A stretch of 64,000 nt of DNA, taken from contig CBDUPA010000001.1 of NCBI GenBank assembly GCA_965368975.1, forward strand, positions 736,001 to 800,000. Reading direction: 5' to 3'. The position numbers and the translations under genes were made by a program. This DNA is from an uncultured bacterium. GTDB lineage: Bacteria; Acidobacteriota; Thermoanaerobaculia; Multivoradales; JAHZIX01. Under the pieces are notes generated by a model. It saw only the letters and a program-made list of their open reading frames with translations, did not search any database and was not told the origin of the DNA. Below, piece after piece: positions 1 to 8,048 of the stretch (position 1 is its first letter; every line of letters begins with the position of its first letter).

Positions 1-1819
1 CTCCTGGGCTGCGCAAGTCGGGCCAGTTGCCGACAGCGGCACTGAACTGTCGATCTTCGTAGGCGAAAGCTCCCCGCGCTCCTTCGAGGAAGCGTATCTC
101 ACCGGTTTCGCGGTAGAGGTGCAGCAGGGCGAGCCCGACACCGGCATTGCCGTGGGAAAGCCCGAGCTGTGCTGGTCCGTCCTCGTCGTGAACGGCTGCA
201 TAGCGGCCAGGCCAGATCCAGCACCCGTCTGCGGTCTCCGCACTCTCGCACAGCTGATCGCCCAGGGCGAGCGCAGCGCGCCGCAGGCGCTTGAAACCAG
301 TGGCGTTATAGAGCTCCAGGAGCATTGGAATCGTGCCGCTGTCTCCGCTGATGAAGTCCACTGGTCGGTCTGCTTCTGGTGCGATGGCCTCTTCGAGGCT
401 AAAAGCATCCAAGTGCTGATCGACCTGTGCAGTGAGGTTGTCGTCCCCGAGTCGGTTTGCACAGTGCCGAGTTGCCCAGAGATGTCCGGCGAGCCCGCCA
501 AACGGACTCAGATCCTGAGCGCCTGGCTCGGCTCGTTCTGCCTGCCAGAGCGTCTGTTGGAGCAGGCCTAGCAAAGTATCTCGAAGCCGTTCCTCGCGGG
601 TCGCCAGGAAGAGTTCCGCAAGGAAGAGCGCAACGCCGGAAGTGCCATCGTGCATTTCGGCCGGAAGTGTGCAGACCGCGGCATATCCTCCCCAACCATC
701 GAGCTTCGAGGGAGAGCAACGGCTGAGCCAATTGCAGCGTCCTTGATACCAGTTGGCTTCTTGGCAAAGGTCGAGACCAATGCCGAGGGCACACTGAGAG
801 AGGCTTGCTGGAGAGGGCTTTCTGTGGGGTTCGTGTCTACGAGATGCGCGGCGGATTCCTGGTAAGGGGTAGCAAGCCTGAGATCGTGGCGCCCGGTACG
901 GCTTTGCCGGGTCCAGGCCGGCAGTGCGGAAAGCGGTATCAACGGTTTCTTCCTTGGGCTGGCCAGTTGTGAAGGCCTCTACGAGAGCTGAGGCGATCAA
1001 CTCGCATCGGTGTTCGCCGAAGCTCTCACCGCCGAGTGGCCCTTCGGCGACAGCCAGTCCGGGGGCCAGGGGCAAGGTGAAGCAGGGAGTTGCTTCATGA
1101 AGGCCATGTTCCACAGCCCGATAAAGTTCAGCGATAGCAAGAGCCACCGTGGCCCAACAGCCGGACTGCAGGTACAGAACGCCGGCATCGGCGCGTCCAT
1201 AAGCCGAGGGATCATCGGGTACCTTCGCCTTGAAGCTAATGCCGAGCGGGTCGAGTGTCTGGCAGAGCTGCTCTAGCCAGGTCGTGGCGCAGTCGGGATT
1301 CAGGTTCCAGTACAGGCGAAGTAGCCAGGGTGATTCTGAACTCGGTGAATCGGTGGTACCCAGAATGGAGTAGAAACCTGGGAGCCTGTTTGGGGCATCG
1401 CCTGGGATTCGAACCGAGATGGCGTCTCCTGGCTTCAGAGTTTCCTCGACATGACGGACATCGCTCAAAGGGCTGTGGAAGCGAATACCACCACGTTCAA
1501 CGATGCACCGCGCATCCGGGAGGATTTCTCTCAGTCTCCATCCGCTCTGCCAGCAGAACCTTCCTTCCTCGACCCGGAGAAGGTGCTGCCGAAAGAGTGC
1601 GGCCGAGTTGATCTCAGCAAGCGGGGCCATGACCGGAAGCTGCCGTGACCGCATGTAGACATGTTGGTAGAGGTGCCGAGTCAGAGATTCGACCAAGGAA
1701 CTGGACGGGGAACGGTGCAAGGTCTCGCCACACAGTCGGTAGCTGTTGCTGTCGATCAGGTCGATGGTTTCGACCGTGGTGCGAAGGTCGGTCGACCACT
1801 GTCGAGGGCCGAGAAACAT
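1..1819 (-). CDS. HopA1-family (LanY-like) lyase fused to LanC-like cyclase; 3' end runs off the window
   Basis: Not in the ORF track. Manual translation from ATG 1819 (just past the upstream kinase stop) stays open to base 1. N-half has HopA1 motifs RLYWNL, FKAKV, YGRADAGVLY, TPCFTLPLAPGLAVAE, ESFGEHRCELIA, GLDPAKPY. C-half has LanC motifs DGTSGVALFLAEL, DFISGDSG, GLSHGNAGVGLALL, NWPDLR. Confidence 0.85.
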   Translation of the reverse strand, partial: MFLGPRQWSTDLRTTVETIDLIDSNSYRLCGETLHRSPSSSLVESLTRHLYQHVYMRSRQLPVMAPLAEINSAALFRQHLLRVEEGRFCWQSGWRLREILPDARCIVERGGIRFHSPLSDVRHVEETLKPGDAISVRIPGDAPNRLPGFYSILGTTDSPSSESPWLLRLYWNLNPDCATTWLEQLCQTLDPLGISFKAKVPDDPSAYGRADAGVLYLQSGCWATVALAIAELYRAVEHGLHEATPCFTLPLAPGLAVAEGPLGGESFGEHRCELIASALVEAFTTGQPKEETVDTAFRTAGLDPAKPYRAPRSQACYPLPGIRRASRRHEPHRKPSPASLSQCALGIGLDLCQEANWYQGRCNWLSRCSPSKLDGWGGYAAVCTLPAEMHDGTSGVALFLAELFLATREERLRDTLLGLLQQTLWQAERAEPGAQDLSPFGGLAGHLWATRHCANRLGDDNLTAQVDQHLDAFSLEEAIAPEADRPVDFISGDSGTIPMLLELYNATGFKRLRRAALALGDQLCESAETADGCWIWPGRYAAVHDEDGPAQLGLSHGNAGVGLALLHLYRETGEIRFLEGARGAFAYEDRQFSAAVGNWPDLRSPG

Positions 1820-1823
1820 GAAG

Positions 1824-2954
1824 TCAGGCAGGGGGCGAGTCCTCCGCTGAGACAGGGGATTCCAGATCGTAGAGGTGGTGCGCCGCGTCGTCGGGATCCT
1901 TTAAGATATTCACTCCTAGCTGCGAGAGGAGAACCATGAGCGTGGTGTAGCCGGAGGCCCTGCGGCCGACCTCCTGTGCTGTTCCGAGTAACTGCACGCC
2001 AGAAAAGGCGACGGACCGCTGCAGGAGGTTTGCCGTTGCCTCCGTGGGTAACAGGGCGGCTTCCAGGTAGGCGTGCCAGAAGCCTTGGATCCATGGACGC
2101 ACCATTCTGAGTGGCATGCGAGCCGCCTGAGAGCGCTCAGCCGACTCGATGTCGGCTTCCATGGGCATGCTGGTGACCCAGAACCGCAAGAACTCGCGAA
2201 GGACGGCTCCGAGATCCCAAGCTGGATCCCCGAAGCGGGCCATCTCCCAATCCACGAGTCGCAGGGGCTGTTCGGTGTCGGCTATCCACAAGACGTTGTC
2301 GGATCGAATATCGCCGTGGATCAGCGTTTCATCCTGCCATCTGGATCGCCAGATCTCGAGAGGCTCCAGTAGCTCCACTTCTCCTTGAATGATGCGCAAC
2401 AAGTCCAACTGAGCTGGTCTCAGCTCGTTGCGGCGGGCCAGGTTTACTTTGGGAAACCAGAAGAGTCCGGGCGCACCCATGGGCAGCTTGGGTACGAAGC
2501 CGCCGAGGTCGAGCCTGCGGCGCCTCAGACCCCGGTGGACTCGGCCCAGGCTGCGGCCCAGGGCCTTGGCGATGGAGAGGCCTTGGGCAGACTCTTCGGT
2601 GCACGCCTGCAACCACGGTCGTGCGTTCCTGATCAGCTCTGCTGCCAGAACAGGATCAGGCGAGTCAGTCTTCTTTATCGCTGGTAACAGGGGCAGGAGG
2701 TCTCGGTGACCTGGAACTGCACCAAGGCATTGGTGCAGCCTTGCCTCGTACGCCAAAGGCGGGCCTTGCTCCGGTCTGCCAGAAGGTTTCTTGATCAGGT
2801 AGCCAGGTTGATTGGGAAACTCGACTCTCAAGCTTTGATTGAGCCGGAGAATCCAGGTGACACCCAGGCCATCGATCAGGTCTTTTTCGCGCAAGAAAGG
2901 ACACAACTCGAGGAGTTCTTTGCCCAGTTCTGACGGAGCTTCGAGGGGCTTCAC
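1824..2954 (-). CDS. APH/phosphotransferase-family kinase (class V lanthipeptide LanK-like)
   Basis: LIHGDIRSDN Brenner motif and LVDWEMARFGDPAWDLG; directly upstream of the HopA1-LanC gene; GTG start. Confidence 0.85.
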   Translation of the reverse strand: MKPLEAPSELGKELLELCPFLREKDLIDGLGVTWILRLNQSLRVEFPNQPGYLIKKPSGRPEQGPPLAYEARLHQCLGAVPGHRDLLPLLPAIKKTDSPDPVLAAELIRNARPWLQACTEESAQGLSIAKALGRSLGRVHRGLRRRRLDLGGFVPKLPMGAPGLFWFPKVNLARRNELRPAQLDLLRIIQGEVELLEPLEIWRSRWQDETLIHGDIRSDNVLWIADTEQPLRLVDWEMARFGDPAWDLGAVLREFLRFWVTSMPMEADIESAERSQAARMPLRMVRPWIQGFWHAYLEAALLPTEATANLLQRSVAFSGVQLLGTAQEVGRRASGYTTLMVLLSQLGVNILKDPDDAAHHLYDLESPVSAEDSPPA

Positions 2955-2975: not shown

Positions 2976-3179
2976 TCAGGTGGCCGGCGAAGACGGCGAG
3001 CACCACTGAGGGTGACTATTTTGAAGCGTGCGTAAGGGGGGAAACCACACACAGTCTGGTGACGGCGAAGATCTGTCGTCTTCGGACTCGACTTCGGCTT
3101 GGGCCAAATAGGTGTCCGTAAGGTGACCCTTCAAGAAGTGGCTCGCGCGAGGGGACTGGCGGTGCTGTTTTTTGCGCAT
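2976..3179 (-). CDS. Putative RiPP (lanthipeptide) precursor peptide, 67 aa
   Basis: Strong RBS (GAGGAG 5 nt before ATG, overlapping the upstream stop). Leader-like N-half with an acidic stretch. C-terminal SSPSPDCVWFPPLRTLQNSHPQWCSPSSPAT has 2 Cys, 7 Ser, 2 Thr. Lies directly before the kinase and HopA1-LanC genes. Confidence 0.7.
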   Translation of the reverse strand: MRKKQHRQSPRASHFLKGHLTDTYLAQAEVESEDDRSSPSPDCVWFPPLRTLQNSHPQWCSPSSPAT

Positions 3180-3188
3180 ACGTTCTCC

Positions 3189-6100
3189 TCATAGGTTTCT
3201 GCATCCAACTGCTGGTGATCCCGCCGAGCGTACATATGTGGCGAGCTCATGATCGTCTACCAGAGTTTGGAACTGTTCGTCGGACCATTCGGCGTCGAGA
3301 AGCCGATGCACAATGGGTAACGCTTCTTCAATTCGCCCCAGCTCCAGCAGGGACTGAGCTCGAGTATCGAGAATCCGGCACTTCTCGGCTGGCAGTGCTT
3401 CCGCTAACTCGAGTGCTTTCTGCCAGCTGTTGCGAGCCAGATCCTCTTCGTCGCGTTGCTTCTGAATGCGACCAAGTTCGAGGTAGGTTCGAGCTGTCGC
3501 TTCCGTGTTTTGTGGATTCTCAGGCATATCCTGGAGAAGACGCAGGACCGTTCTTCCTTCTAGGAGAGCCAAATCCCATTTGCTCGCACTCTTATAGTGA
3601 TCCTGGAGAGCCGCATGCGACACAACTAGCCATAGTTGCAGGTGGGTGTAGGTCGGATGTTCATCTGCCACTTGTTTGAAGGTTTCACTGGCGCGGTGCA
3701 GGTAGGCCAGAGCTATCTCGGGCTGGTCCTCAAGTGCCGTGGCAAGGCCAACCCAGGTCTGTGCCAACGCTACAGGCCAAGTGTCCCGCAATGGGTCGAG
3801 TACGATCAGTTGTTGATAGAGGCGCTCGGCCTCTCGTAGTCTGTGGAGCGCGCTCGGCTTGTCAGCTGTAGCCAGATAGAGGTTTCCGAGATCGAGTTCG
3901 GTTATGGCCTGTGCTCTGAGCCAGGTGAGCTGTGTTGGATTGCCTTCCATCAGATTTCCGAGCCTTGTTCGTAACCTTTCAAGAGCACGTATTCCTTGTT
4001 GGAAATCGGACCGAGCCTGGTGGAGTGTTCCGAATAGTTGCAAGGTATCAACAAGCAGAGTTTCGGTTCGCCAGTTCGAAGTTGGCTCGAGTACAAGGTC
4101 TTCTGCAATCTGGAGCGCCTCCTCAGCATACTCCAAGCCCTGCTCGAAGTCTCCGATTCGGCAGTACAAGTGAGCGGTCTCCTGAAGATTCTGGCCTAGC
4201 AACAGGCGCCACTCGGTCGGCGCATCCTCCCTTCCTGCCAGTTGCCGCGCCAGCAGGCGAGAAGAGGCGAGACTGTCGAGTCCTTCCTGGGTTTTTTCCT
4301 GTCGAATCAGAACGGACGCAAGTCTAAGTCTTGCCCGGCTCAGGGCTCCTTGGACTCGGGCTTGGCTCGGATCTTTCTCATGTAGGGCCGCTAGGATGCG
4401 GACGGCTTTCTCATGTGCAGCTTGAGCCTGGTTGACATCCAGCCGCTCTTCTAAGACCCATCCGATGTTGAGATACGTGAGGGCGCGGCGAAGACTGTCC
4501 GCGGAGCTGAAGTCCGCCTGGGTTTGCGAGAAATGCTCCAAAGCTCTTTGAGCCACTTGATCCAGCAGGTCCAGGCGCCCCAGAGGTTCCAGATTTTCCT
4601 GCAGGTCGAAGAGCATGAAGTCGATCAACCCTTCCGCCTGCCGCCGCTGCTCTCCTTCGCGCTCCTTTGCCTGCATGGCCTGGAGCGCGAGGACAACGAC
4701 CACCACCAGGAAGATCGACGCCGTGACGGCAACTGCCTTGAGTCGTCGTCGGCGCCGGACCGCTTGCTGCGCAGCCCGCCTCGCTGCCCTTTCCGTTGCC
4801 CGTTCCGCCCGCCGTTGTTCCAGAGTGTACAGCTTCTCGGCAGCAATCAAGCCACTCGCCGGCCGCCGCTCCGGCCGGCCATCGACGAGCGTGCCAATGT
4901 CCTCGACCAGCAACTCCTCCTCGACATCCCGCTCCCAGCCGGAGGCCAAGGGCCGCTCGAAATCAGCCGCGACCAGTTGATAGAGCAGCACACCGAACGA
5001 GTAGAGATCCGCCTGGATCGTGGCCGGTCGGCCGGCAAGTAGCTCCGGTGCCATGTAGCCGAAGGTTCCCGCTCCGGAGTCCGTGGTCGGGGTTGCCGTC
5101 GCCGTGAAGCCGAGGGCAGTGAAATCTTGCCCTGCCAGCTGTTCTCGATCCGTCAGCAGTCCGATGCCAAAGTCGGTCAGGCGCGCGCGCGGGCGGCCAT
5201 CGCGGTCGCTGGTGATCAAGACGTTCTCGGGCTTGATGTCCTTGTGCAGCACGCCGACCGAGTGCGCCGCCGCCAGCGCCTCGGCGACTTCGGCGGCCAG
5301 TTCCAGGCGCACCTCGAGCGGTACTTGACTCAGGCCTCCTTGCTGCTCGGCCCAGCGCACCAGGCTGCCGCCCTCGGTGTACTCGGCCTCGACGAAGAAG
5401 GGAGCGCTGTCGAAATTCCAGTCCAGGATGCGCGCGATGTCGTCGCGCTGGCCCAGGGCTTCCTTGAGCAGGCGGAAGAGCGTCACCTCGCGCTTGAGCG
5501 CGCGCAGGCGCTCGGCCTCGAAGCAGAACTTGAAGACGCGCGCCTCGCCGGCTTTGTGGCGGGCCAGCCAGACCTCGCCGAAGCCACCTTCGCCGACGCG
5601 CTCTTCCAGCTTCCAGTGCGGTCGACCGGGAATGGGTTGACCACCGGCGGGGCGCCAGCCGAGCATGCGTTCTTCGCTGACGGACAGGGCCCGCCGGGCA
5701 TCGGTGCGTTCGGAGGGAGGTCGTAGGGCCGACAGCCCGTCGAGACCGACCTCGAACACGTCCAGAGGGGTTTCTCGGCCCCTGAGCAGGTAGCTGCCGT
5801 GCGCCAGCCAGCGAAGACTGCTCTTGCCGCCGTCTTCCGTGCCGTCGCGGGAGTCCGGATGGGCACGGCGCGCGAGGTCGAAGGCGGTACGGCTGAGCAG
5901 GATCTGGTTGCCAGCGGCGAGGTGTAAGAGCTGGCAGGCGGTTCCCTTCTCGCTACCTTCGACTTCCACCTCCGGTGCACCTTGCTGCCTCTCGGCAGAG
6001 GAGGGACGGTGCACCAGAACTTCCGCCGTGTGGATGGCGGCGCGGATCGGCAACTCGACCGCGAAGGTGGAGGCCACTTCGAGGATGGCCCGCTGGGTGG

Positions 6101-7361
6101 ACAAGGCGCAGGCGACAGCATCGGCGGGGCGTTCGAAGACGGCGAGCAGGCTGTCGGCTTTCTCGGCCACCGAGCCGCCGTACAGGGACACCAGGTCGCG
6201 CAGGCGCCGGTCGTACCGGCTCAGGAGGCTGGCCGCGGTGCCGTCGCCGTGGCGCTGGGGCAGGGCGGCGCGGTGGAGCAGTTCGACGTGGAGCAAGGTG
6301 CGAACGGCTGGAGTGCCGGTAGGAGGGGAGGGGAACCATTCGCCGGTCGCCTGCTCGCTCGTGGCGGGGTTGCCGTCGAGTTCGCCGTGGCTGGCGGAAG
6401 CCCGCCGCGTACCTGACGGCCGTGGCAGGGCAGAGGTGTCGGGCTGGAGGAGCACGCCAGGGCCAGTGCCGGCATCCGTGCCAGGGCCAGGGCCGCTTCG
6501 CAGTCGTTCCAGCGAAGCGGCCACCAGGCTGGCGTTGGCGGGGCGCTGGTGCGGGTCCTTGGCCAGCAGGGCCTCGACTAGCTGCAGCAGGTCGGCTGGC
6601 AGCCGCGGCTGCAATTGAGCTAGGGAAGTCGGAGGTTCTGCAGTGATGCGGCACAGGGTGTCGAGCAAGTTCGTCCCCTGGAAGGGGGGGCGACCGCTGA
6701 GCATCTGGTAGAGCAGGCTGCCGAGGGCGAAGAGGTCCGATCGGTGGTCGAGCGGACGGCCGCTGGCCTGCTCGGGAGACATTGCATGGACGGTGCCGAC
6801 CAGGGCTCCCGCTTCGGTCAGGGTCTGGGAGCCGATAGGGTCCTGGAGGAGCGGGTCTTGGGACGACGTGTCCCTGCGCCAGAGGCAGTGCACCAGGCCG
6901 AAGTCGAGGATCTTGGCATGTCCGGCGGCGGTCAGGCGGACGTTCTCGGGCTTCAGGTCTCGGTGGACGAAGCCGCGAGCGTGCGCCTCGGCCAGACCTT
7001 GGGCGATCTCCGTACCGAGACGTAACGTCTGGTCGAGGTCGAGGGGGCCGTCTGTCAGCAGATCGGCCAGGCTCGGCCCCTCGACGTACTCCATGACCAG
7101 GCAATCGCCGTCGTCGGTGGAAACGATGTCGAAGATCTGGACGATCGCCGGATGGTTGAGGCCCGCCACGGCCCGGGCTTCGCGCCGGAAGCGCTCACGT
7201 CGCCGCGGATCGACTTCCAGGTCTTCGCGGATGCGCTTGATGGCGACTTTCCGGTGCAGGCGCTCATCGCGCGCCAGGAAGACCTCTCCCATCCCTCCGA
7301 CGCCGAGCCTGGACTCGACGCGGTAGGAACCAAAGCTGAGTTCGACTGATGCTGTGGGCAT
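3189..7361 (-). CDS. Membrane receptor: two Hanks-type Ser/Thr kinase domains flanking a degenerate class III nucleotidyl cyclase-like domain, TM helix, C-terminal TPR region
   Basis: Kinase 1: GVGGMGEV, AIK, HRDLKPEN, DFG. Middle: TLLHVEL...EKADSLLAVF...AVACAL...IRAAIHTAEV, cyclase-like. Kinase 2: GEGGFGEVW, HKDIKPEN, DFG, APE. TM: AVAVTASIFLVVVVVLAL. Helical TPR-like C-terminus. Confidence 0.88.
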   Translation of the reverse strand: MPTASVELSFGSYRVESRLGVGGMGEVFLARDERLHRKVAIKRIREDLEVDPRRRERFRREARAVAGLNHPAIVQIFDIVSTDDGDCLVMEYVEGPSLADLLTDGPLDLDQTLRLGTEIAQGLAEAHARGFVHRDLKPENVRLTAAGHAKILDFGLVHCLWRRDTSSQDPLLQDPIGSQTLTEAGALVGTVHAMSPEQASGRPLDHRSDLFALGSLLYQMLSGRPPFQGTNLLDTLCRITAEPPTSLAQLQPRLPADLLQLVEALLAKDPHQRPANASLVAASLERLRSGPGPGTDAGTGPGVLLQPDTSALPRPSGTRRASASHGELDGNPATSEQATGEWFPSPPTGTPAVRTLLHVELLHRAALPQRHGDGTAASLLSRYDRRLRDLVSLYGGSVAEKADSLLAVFERPADAVACALSTQRAILEVASTFAVELPIRAAIHTAEVLVHRPSSAERQQGAPEVEVEGSEKGTACQLLHLAAGNQILLSRTAFDLARRAHPDSRDGTEDGGKSSLRWLAHGSYLLRGRETPLDVFEVGLDGLSALRPPSERTDARRALSVSEERMLGWRPAGGQPIPGRPHWKLEERVGEGGFGEVWLARHKAGEARVFKFCFEAERLRALKREVTLFRLLKEALGQRDDIARILDWNFDSAPFFVEAEYTEGGSLVRWAEQQGGLSQVPLEVRLELAAEVAEALAAAHSVGVLHKDIKPENVLITSDRDGRPRARLTDFGIGLLTDREQLAGQDFTALGFTATATPTTDSGAGTFGYMAPELLAGRPATIQADLYSFGVLLYQLVAADFERPLASGWERDVEEELLVEDIGTLVDGRPERRPASGLIAAEKLYTLEQRRAERATERAARRAAQQAVRRRRRLKAVAVTASIFLVVVVVLALQAMQAKEREGEQRRQAEGLIDFMLFDLQENLEPLGRLDLLDQVAQRALEHFSQTQADFSSADSLRRALTYLNIGWVLEERLDVNQAQAAHEKAVRILAALHEKDPSQARVQGALSRARLRLASVLIRQEKTQEGLDSLASSRLLARQLAGREDAPTEWRLLLGQNLQETAHLYCRIGDFEQGLEYAEEALQIAEDLVLEPTSNWRTETLLVDTLQLFGTLHQARSDFQQGIRALERLRTRLGNLMEGNPTQLTWLRAQAITELDLGNLYLATADKPSALHRLREAERLYQQLIVLDPLRDTWPVALAQTWVGLATALEDQPEIALAYLHRASETFKQVADEHPTYTHLQLWLVVSHAALQDHYKSASKWDLALLEGRTVLRLLQDMPENPQNTEATARTYLELGRIQKQRDEEDLARNSWQKALELAEALPAEKCRILDTRAQSLLELGRIEEALPIVHRLLDAEWSDEQFQTLVDDHELATYVRSAGSPAVGCRNL

Positions 7362-7391: not shown

Positions 7392-8048
7392 TCAACTCGT
7401 GACTTGCTTGTTTCTTTCCGGCTTGCCTTTCTCCAGAGTGTGCAGCAGCCAGAGACGCGCGCTGCGCCACTCTCGCTTGACAGTGCGCGGTGAGATCTCG
7501 AGGGTATGTGCGGTCTCTTCGACGGTGAGACCAGCAAAGTAGCGCAGTTCGACGATACGGCTCTGCCGAGGAGCCAGTTGTGTCAGCTCGTGCAGGGCTC
7601 GGTCGAGATCGAGCAAGTCGACGGTGCGGTGCCGATGGCCCCCTGCGCTCCAAGCCTCATCGATCGGAATGATGGTGCAGTCGCCGCCATGCCGCATCGC
7701 TTGGTTGCGGCGGGCGTGGTTGATCAGGAGCCGCCGCATGGTGGTGCCCATGTAGGCGAAGAATTGCGCTCGGCACTGCCAGCTCAGCTCGCGCCCCCCC
7801 GTCAAGCGCAGATACGCCTCGTTCACCAGGGCGGTCGGCTGTAGCGTGTGGCCCCGACGCTGACGCTGTAGGTGGAAGGCGGCGAGTTGACGCAGGTCGT
7901 TGAGCACCAGTGGAAATACGTGCGCCAAGGCAGAAGCGTCCCCCCGAGCCCAGGCGTCGAGAAGCTGGGTGACCTCTCCGGACGGTGGCTCGGTGAAGGC
8001 GCGGCCTTCTTCGTTCGGCGGAGACTCCTGAGGAATGCTACCTACCAT
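7392..8048 (-). CDS. ECF sigma factor of the Ser/Thr-kinase-associated type (TIGR02999-like)
   Basis: EVTQLLDAW.RGD..AL, HTLQPTALVNEAYLRL, IVELRYFAGLTVEETA..LEISPRTVKREW; immediately upstream of a kinase gene. Confidence 0.92.
   Translation of the reverse strand: MVGSIPQESPPNEEGRAFTEPPSGEVTQLLDAWARGDASALAHVFPLVLNDLRQLAAFHLQRQRRGHTLQPTALVNEAYLRLTGGRELSWQCRAQFFAYMGTTMRRLLINHARRNQAMRHGGDCTIIPIDEAWSAGGHRHRTVDLLDLDRALHELTQLAPRQSRIVELRYFAGLTVEETAHTLEISPRTVKREWRSARLWLLHTLEKGKPERNKQVTS

Follow-up and report, generated by a model that had tools for sequence, protein, structure and literature searches.

A candidate short-leader lanthipeptide precursor ahead of a LanK kinase and a fused LanY-LanC protein in an Acidobacteria-like genome

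Does a 67-codon open reading frame (ORF) lying between two kinase genes encode the peptide on which the enzymes of the genes behind it act? The window analysed here is a 64,000-nucleotide stretch of one contig of an Acidobacteria-like genome, a likeness read in part from the origin of the nearest loci. Near its start five minus-strand genes are arranged head to tail, those for an ECF sigma factor, a 1390-aa Ser/Thr kinase, the ORF in question, a LanK-type kinase and a fusion of LanY (HopA1) with LanC, and the gaps between them measure, in order, 30, 9, 21 and 4 nt. We consider that the ORF is probably a genuine, unannotated single-core precursor (LanA) with a short leader, acting in a class Vb-type lanthipeptide pathway; the precursor reading put forward in the original prediction draws support from the position of the ORF, from a leader box specific to its family and from a predicted complex with LanK. 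The features on which the argument turns are as follows.

7392..8048, minus strand: ECF sigma factor (PF07638), separated by 30 nt from the kinase gene that follows and probably heading the row
3189..7361, minus strand: 1390-aa protein, probable regulator, with a Ser/Thr kinase, a cyclase-like region, a second kinase domain, a hydrophobic segment and TPR
3185..3190, minus strand: GAGGAG Shine-Dalgarno-like site, 5 nt before the ATG, read directly
2976..3179 (stop codon included), minus strand: candidate precursor gene (LanA-like), 67 aa, ranked 1, 2 and 7 among the ORFs of the genome with three leader profiles
3105..3137 (codons 15-25), minus strand: FLxG leader box FLKGHLTDTYL, proposed LanK docking element, from profile alignments and predicted contacts
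2979..3071 (codons 37-67), minus strand: proposed core, Pro/Ser-rich, with Cys43 and Cys60, from composition; putative border after EDDR
1824..2954, minus strand: LanK, a 376-aa kinase of APH fold, starting with GTG 21 nt past the stop of the precursor
1..1819 and on past the window start to G000:C1:735537, minus strand: LanY (HopA1-like lyase)-LanC (cyclase) fusion, 760 aa

A short reading frame in the spacer before LanK

Read from the minus strand, positions 2976-3179 give 67 codons from an ATG start to a TGA stop, and the translation is exactly the peptide quoted in the original prediction. The ribosome-binding site said to overlap the preceding stop was also confirmed, as the TGA of the 1390-aa gene lies at 3191-3189 and is overlapped by the GAGGAG at 3190-3185 (minus-strand letters around the ORF start: TGAGGAGAACGTATG). 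The stop-to-stop frame of the ORF holds no second start codon, and the ORF takes up 204 of the 234 nt of the spacer that runs from the stop of the 1390-aa gene to the GTG start of the kinase gene (2954).

Might this 234-nt spacer be non-coding, and the likeness of the ORF to leaders elsewhere a coincidence? Several observations fit such an explanation. The codon-usage score of the ORF is poor (-0.37 per codon, near the 3rd percentile for windows of 67 codons from long ORFs and near the 80th for windows read out of frame). The ORF is missing from the protein database while the adjoining kinase gene is present there (P0005, a shortened 262-aa call), so at least one gene caller skipped it, and a word-indexed search of 5.8 billion clustered proteins returned no full-length homologue of the peptide. 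The lone phmmer match among 1.84 billion representatives searched exhaustively, P0024, gave no BLASTP alignment and was set aside as meaningless; the 7.1-Mb genome holds no paralogue, and neither Pfam nor NCBIfam has a family for the peptide. The GC3 of the ORF (0.66) is in line with that of the neighbouring cluster genes (0.64-0.69). Weighing against a non-coding spacer is the length of the ORF: complete operon-strand ORFs of at least 67 aa arose in 342 of 20,000 mononucleotide shuffles of the gap (1.7%), and ATG-started ones in 136 of the same shuffles (0.7%), by which the ORF is in itself mildly unusual, not decisively so. Also weighing against it, a structured RNA was rejected as the content of the spacer, which matches nothing in Rfam at E up to 1 and folds in no unusual way (z = 0.01). 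A scan of the region for promoters and terminators found nothing exceeding shuffled expectation, and no terminator-like site on the operon strand.

No close relative of the locus was found either in genome_contigs (a single-protein scan with the fusion protein) or in metagenome_contigs (a scan with LanK). The best LanK homologue in the database, P0006, is 45% identical, and P0008 is 36% identical; a sediment metagenome DNA run (X1) contained short contigs identical to the window, with no variants.

Precursors at related loci and the FLxG leader box

If the ORF encodes a substrate, do comparable ORFs occur beside homologous enzymes, as the original prediction proposed to check? Sets of LanK, LanY and LanC at 25-38% identity were found in 10 of 61 related genomes (its own genome counted) and in 3 of the 401 genomes sampled from the phylum, and also in many named records from other phyla, namely Chloroflexota, Actinomycetota, Bacteroidota, Cyanobacteria, Alphaproteobacteria, Gemmatimonadota, Acidobacteriota and one archaeal MAG. 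All three enzymes are present at 25 of the 32 loci examined, and at seven of these 25, the window's locus among them, LanY and LanC share one frame without a stop. Most of the related loci examined do have a comparable ORF, rich in Cys, Ser, Thr and Pro, immediately 5' of LanK. Most such ORFs encode large proteins of 150-558 aa, in which a conserved N-terminal region of ~95 aa precedes anything from a single core to dozens of repeated ones; the candidates at L049 (83 aa) and L051 (114 aa) are small, L036 was also grouped as small, and sizes elsewhere were taken as 150-560 aa.

These ORFs appear to belong to a family that annotation has passed over. Six large candidate precursors that were scanned matched no Pfam or NCBIfam family, and a profile of 12 leaders retrieved 72 database proteins of 55-207 aa at E <=1e-5, which are without exception unnamed or 'hypothetical' and carry no Pfam domain. 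In the ESM Atlas one long-leader precursor found unnamed clusters only, under 0.9. The Micromonospora precursor, used as the query of a scan, found nothing but itself, and so gave no link to the Streptomyces Smo/Spc clusters. One locus, L115, was reached by a scan with the LanK homologue P0007, which is 37% identical to the window's LanK; the LanK of L115 is ~38% identical to it by tblastn.

What the window's peptide has in common with the precursors beside LanK, LanY and LanC in other phyla is a short box at the leader/core border with the consensus F-L-x-G-x-hydrophobic. Of 17 hand-picked candidate precursors (13 chosen by BLAST-defined family membership and 4 by eye), 15 have the box a single time, at this border. 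Its G is one of only three invariant columns in the alignment of 12 leaders, and a regex-free MAFFT alignment of the 72 database proteins has F in 60, L in 61 and G in 66 of them. The box pattern itself is found in 56 of the 72; of the other 16, at least 7 are fragments no longer than 124 aa. The stretch in the window's peptide is HFLKGHLTDTYLAQ, and the corresponding stretches at related loci are KFLKGPMTSGFLAQ (L037), EFLKGSLQAAYLS (L038) and RFLRGEVTDRFLGG (L036).

Three profiles, all built without the window's ORF, were tested on the 97,386 six-frame stop-to-stop ORFs of >=40 aa in the genome, with these results for the window's ORF.

13-leader profile: 10.9 bits, E 1.7e-5 (one sequence), residues 8-32, rank 1 (11.1 bits against 9.6 for the next)
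66-protein box profile: 10.0 bits, E 4.1e-5 (one sequence), residues 15-27, rank 2 by best domain and 4 by full sequence
72-protein full-length profile, which takes in low-complexity cores: 8.0 bits, E 1.4e-4 (one sequence), residues 8-36, rank 7

All three align to one common stretch of the peptide. That stretch contains FLKGHLTDTYL, which had been guessed to be the leader recognition motif and which is also the site of the tightest predicted contacts with LanK, so that the guess is supported on both counts. The box is short, the scores reach no more than 8-11 bits, and with two of the three profiles the window's ORF is outscored by 1 to 6 others of the genome, all of which are points in favour of a coincidental match. 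The other high-scoring ORFs were rejected as precursors, being shadow frames or lacking the box. A 47-aa stop-to-stop frame at G000:C5:248619-248759 (minus strand), whose end, QADFLAGDAIARL with its box-like QADFLAGD, comes near the box consensus of the family, was taken as a chance occurrence because it is apparently a shadow frame, has no LanK, LanY or LanC nearby and has no leader domain. Standing against coincidence in the case of the window's ORF, it is a single ORF, named in advance, that nevertheless ranks 1st, 2nd and 7th of 97,386, and it sits exactly where the related loci have their precursors.

A box profile of 12 sequences was also applied to 22 loci outside its training set, where four reach 8 bits upstream of LanK: the window's locus (10.7 bits), L036 (8.0), L051 (8.1) and L055 (8.5). 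All four have short leaders, from which we conclude that the box occurs in a short-leader form in Acidobacteriota, Actinomycetota and Gemmatimonadota at least. Of the four, the L055 ORF makes a doubtful precursor, having no Cys and running into the LanK start, and L036a and L051a are Ser/Thr-rich candidates. The window's ORF lacks the N-terminal domain of ~95 aa (DP..PP, G..G.S, RLY, IP.DAIL, VW), with 14 residues preceding its box; it therefore shares the box and is not a full member of the long-leader family.

The predicted LanK-peptide complex and the state of the enzymes

Does the box have a partner among the products of the row? Prediction of a complex between LanK and the peptide gave 0.71, 0.73 and 0.71 in separate runs (score 0.71) and 0.00 for each of three controls. 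Of 80 solved complexes 58 attained the mark for this score, as did 2 of 110 mismatched pairs, a calibration that holds only roughly here, as a custom LanK alignment of 6 rows was used. The runs have at least 59% of contacts in common, with peptide pLDDT of at least 50, and the confident interface pairs peptide residues 9-21 and 24-31 with LanK residues 329-361, the contacts of lowest predicted error being those of F15, L16, G18, L20 and T21. Part of the score could stem from the model's memory of like structures, since kinase-lyase complexes have been solved (9dk1-9dk3). In the available text of Liang et al. 2022 (PMC9486802), the cacaoidin leader binds the kinase CaoK through hydrophobic contacts, and I359, F370 and L374 of CaoK were probed; the site predicted on LanK (329-361) would lie in the same general region of the kinase. 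With the prediction centred on the box and the controls at 0.00, we regard the explanation of the ORF as a chance frame in a non-coding spacer as decidedly improbable.

Could the ORF encode a real small protein that is no substrate of these enzymes, for example a partner or regulator of the sigma factor and kinase upstream? It is translationally coupled to the upstream kinase gene, and ECF systems often carry small partner proteins. Yet the box is specific to ORFs beside LanK, LanY and LanC and is found also at loci without the large kinase, the Pro/Ser/Cys-rich tail resembles the cores of precursors linked to these enzymes, and the contact that is predicted is with LanK, so that we hold such a role to be highly improbable. 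The 1390-aa kinase itself has sub-cut-off matches to TIGR04510 'putative peptide modification system cyclase' (136 bits) and to TIGR03903 'TOMM system kinase/cyclase fusion' (212 bits). Its homologues immediately precede the precursor at L023, L049, L051 and L115, which are loci of acidobacterial type, and this suggests a recurrent regulatory link between such large kinases and peptide-modification clusters.

The neighbouring genes are those that the original prediction implied, a kinase and a HopA1-LanC pair. LanK matches PF01636 at 50.9 bits (cut-off 23.2); its best NCBIfam match, to NF038156 LxmK (class V lanthionine synthetase subunit), scores 90.6 bits and is under the cut-off of 315. Its HGD..N and DWE..GDP columns are invariant in alignment A1. 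The protein database has LanK only in a 262-aa form (P0005, 70% of the ORF); the 376-aa form starting at GTG is more likely right, since homologues align from about residue 2-37 and invariant columns of A1 fall within the first 114 residues. The full 760-aa fusion matches PF17914 at 132 bits and PF05147 at 177 bits. LanK and the lyase domain match the two chains of one solved kinase-lyase complex, PDB 9dk1_A 'Kinase' (E 1.3e-8) and 9dk1_B 'Lyase' (E 1.9e-8). The HopA1 domain keeps all 20 of the 20 columns conserved at >=90% across 25 homologues, and the LanC domain 48 of the 51 conserved at >=90% across 21 homologues, among them SHG, WCHG and LCHG, which align with those of LicM2 (6st5) and which we take to be the acid/base and zinc ligands. 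Judged by these residues, the enzymes of the row look intact.

The state of the enzymes bears on another explanation, that the ORF is a relic or non-substrate, descended from a longer precursor of FLxG type by loss of the N-terminal leader domain and most of the cores, and left unprocessed or stranded in a silent cluster. Most members of the family do have the ~95-aa leader domain and many cores, where the ORF has 14 residues before the box and two Cys, its codon score is poor, and a second LanK/LanY/LanC-like locus in the genome looks degraded. The enzymes, however, keep all or nearly all of their conserved residues, the ORF has a good ribosome-binding site and fills its gap undisrupted, short-leader ORFs with the box lie upstream of LanK at L036, L051 and L055 (8.0-8.5 bits, L055 being doubtful), and the predicted docking would need peptide residues 9-31 only. 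We therefore think a relic unlikely, and retain the reading of the ORF as a functional single-core precursor.

The second locus of the genome is a weaker match to LanK, HopA1 and LanC (G000:C11:154448-156031, locus L030). Its LanC match is in two pieces with the middle absent, a TGA interrupts the kinase-to-lyase frame, and no precursor-like ORF was seen upstream; it is possibly a degraded locus.

The core, its possible rings and known lanthipeptide systems

What product might such a precursor yield? The 31 residues of the proposed core (37-67) include 7 Ser, 7 Pro, 2 Thr and 2 Cys and end in Thr. The pattern Ser-x4-Cys occurs in them twice, as SPSPDC (38-43) and SHPQWC (55-60), and the second of these has counterparts elsewhere: the candidate precursor of L115 has nine SEPWRC repeats, each with one Ser and one Cys and with the spacing and Pro position of SHPQWC, and L029 has AHPTWC repeats that resemble it. 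The two Ser-x4-Cys units and the likeness to L115 and L029 make two small Lan rings a reasonable guess, with partners and direction conjectural, and the ring units of the original prediction, S-P-D-C and S-H-P-Q-W-C, no more than plausible; to judge from the residues available, a ring to Cys43 could start from S38 (SPSPDC) or from S40 (SPDC).

How does the row compare with systems already described? The enzymes SmoK, SmoY and SmoC, with SmoA, are said to have been reported by Pei et al. in 2022 (J Am Chem Soc 144:17549). Among the enzymes of lanthipeptide synthesis more widely, class IV LanL resembles the window's system in proceeding by phosphorylation, phosphate elimination and zinc-dependent cyclisation, but is a single polypeptide with a PF00069 kinase and an N-terminal lyase domain, whereas here an APH-fold kinase is separate and a HopA1-type lyase is fused to LanC. 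The available portions of two papers (PMC11186320, PMC12291118) describe class V lanthipeptides, so far characterised only in actinomycetes, as made with a kinase that is a protein of its own, LanK (PF01636), and a lyase of HopA1 type, LanY (PF17914). In class Va these are joined by LanD and LanX and a C-terminal AviMeCys results; class Vb employs LanC and forms (Me)Lan rings alone. The only member of class Vb characterised by the time of the 2024 paper was mSmoA from Streptomyces (PMC11186320, PMC12291118, PMC12328550, in the text available).

Among 13 neighbouring proteins scanned with Pfam (the larger ORFs from ~11 kb before to 15 kb after the window start) no LanD-type flavoprotein, LanX or second APH was found. 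With LanK, LanY and LanC and with neither LanD nor LanX among the proteins scanned, the window's cluster thus has the class Vb enzyme set, LanY and LanC being fused. The earlier statement that no C-terminal Cys is present, and hence that no AviCys is expected, holds, as the last residue is Thr and neither LanD nor LanX is among the neighbours scanned. Its accompanying claim that the peptide is in this respect unlike described lanthidins stands as far as AviCys is concerned, but an AviCys-free class Vb that uses LanC (SmoA) is already in print, in the accessible parts of PMC11186320 and PMC12291118.

Measured against what the accessible literature says of class Vb, SmoK, SmoY and SmoC are like the enzymes of the window's row, being a stand-alone APH-fold LanK, a HopA1-like LanY and a zinc LanC, and in both cases only (Me)Lan rings are expected, there being no LanD, LanX or C-terminal Cys for AviCys. 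The differences are that here LanY and LanC form one 760-aa protein, that the host is Acidobacteria-like and not an actinomycete and that an ECF sigma factor and a 1390-aa kinase belong to the row. The window's precursor is moreover an orphan in sequence; SmoA may carry an FLxG box too. The class Va lanthidins, again as the available text presents them (cacaoidin with CaoA, CaoK and CaoY, lexapeptide, pristinin), share with our system dehydration by LanK and LanY and recognition of the leader by LanK through hydrophobic contacts (PMC9486802), the site predicted here also falling in the C-terminal helices of the kinase. They differ in needing LanD and LanX, in their C-terminal AviMeCys and in having no LanC, and the type-A leaders of class Va are described with a conserved Tyr-17, Ala-3 and Pro-2 and with no FLxG box.

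A further likeness is to the long-leader family (L021, L022, L024, L029, L037-L042 and L044, with the 72 database proteins), whose members also lie immediately 5' of LanK, have an F-L-x-G-x-hydrophobic box at the leader/core border (FLKG..T..FLAQ in L037, for example) and have cores rich in Cys, Ser/Thr and Pro. Unlike the window's ORF, with its 14 residues before the box and one short core, they carry a conserved domain of ~95 aa before the box, reach 558 aa and have many repeated cores. Class Vb chemistry and the enzyme trio are, on the papers seen in part, already known. As far as our full-text literature search went, what is new is the fused LanY-LanC, the Acidobacteria-like host with an ECF sigma factor and a Ser/Thr kinase in the row, the orphan short-leader precursor, and the FLxG box, through which this precursor is connected with a large family of long, often multi-core precursors that lack annotation. 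That search did not find the FLxG box, which may nevertheless already be described for SmoA or be visible in the class V leader alignments of Liang et al. 2022 and of Pei et al. 2022.

What we infer for translation, the chemical steps, the leader/core border, the ring pattern and the regulation of the pathway is as follows. The ECF sigma and Ser/Thr kinase genes that head the row would probably govern expression. The leader (about residues 1-36) would dock through its FLxG box (F15, L16, G18 and L20) on the C-terminal helices of the APH-fold LanK, which would phosphorylate Ser and Thr of the Pro-rich core (about residues 37-67). The HopA1-like LanY domain would then remove the phosphate, giving dehydroalanine or dehydrobutyrine, and the zinc-type LanC domain would add Cys43 and Cys60, most likely to Ser38 or Ser40 and to Ser55. 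The outcome would be two small thioether rings and no AviCys, with leader removal and export of the product presumably left to unlinked functions.

A wider proposal, which we advance tentatively and would put somewhat short of an even chance, is that precursors of class Vb type form an undescribed, phylum-spanning superfamily in which the FLxG box alone serves for docking on LanK, and which ranges from single-core peptides of 67 aa to proteins of 560 aa with dozens of cores. The 95-aa leader domain would then be an accessory shed in this lineage, and the pathways of Acidobacteriota would be wired directly to ECF sigma/Ser-Thr kinase signalling, which would make the peptide a signal-controlled product and not a constitutive antibiotic. 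If the precursor reading is true, there is a class Vb-type pathway with a fused lyase-cyclase in an Acidobacteria-like genome, with a precursor missed by gene callers and family libraries alike, and a short FLxG box links its peptide to a large unannotated family in Chloroflexota, Actinomycetota, Bacteroidota, Acidobacteriota and others. Genome miners in search of such precursors would gain a handle from a defined docking box, and enzymologists a minimal leader for steering LanK, LanY and LanC to designed cores.

Some minor observations were made along the way. Just past the fusion gene, on the opposite strand, lies the gene of a 352-aa predicted secreted protein (L020:12384-13442, plus strand, equal to G000:C1:734384-735442) with three GELDTELEIDPNL repeats and no Pfam match; this ORF, which separates the fusion gene from the next sigma gene, was considered as a precursor and rejected as a predicted secreted repeat protein. 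Locus L035 (CAYTQD010000085.1, labelled as a Nitrososphaeraceae archaeon MAG) has LanK and a fused LanY-LanC on a 5-kb contig, whose upstream part offers 580 nt and showed no convincing precursor.

Very large candidate precursors (297-558 aa) lie beside LanK, LanY and LanC at several loci and contain dozens of short Cys/Thr/Pro repeats, such as C-P-x-T-x-x-C; judged by these repeats they would be multi-core lanthipeptide 'polyproteins'.

L021:10463-11515, minus strand: very large candidate precursor
L021:11627-13303, minus strand: very large candidate precursor
L022:11092-12123, minus strand: very large candidate precursor
L024:4598-5878, plus strand: very large candidate precursor
L029:2729-3622, minus strand: very large candidate precursor
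L033:35-1234, plus strand: very large candidate precursor
L046:3439-4794, plus strand: very large candidate precursor

At two other loci, with candidates at L036:4439-4951 and L045:2085-2798 (both plus strand), LanK and LanY are present with no LanC within reach, and the candidate cores are Thr-rich and without any Cys; the L036 ORF retains the FLxG box. Such Cys-free cores at LanC-less loci, of which there are two only, would fit products that are dehydrated and not cyclised.
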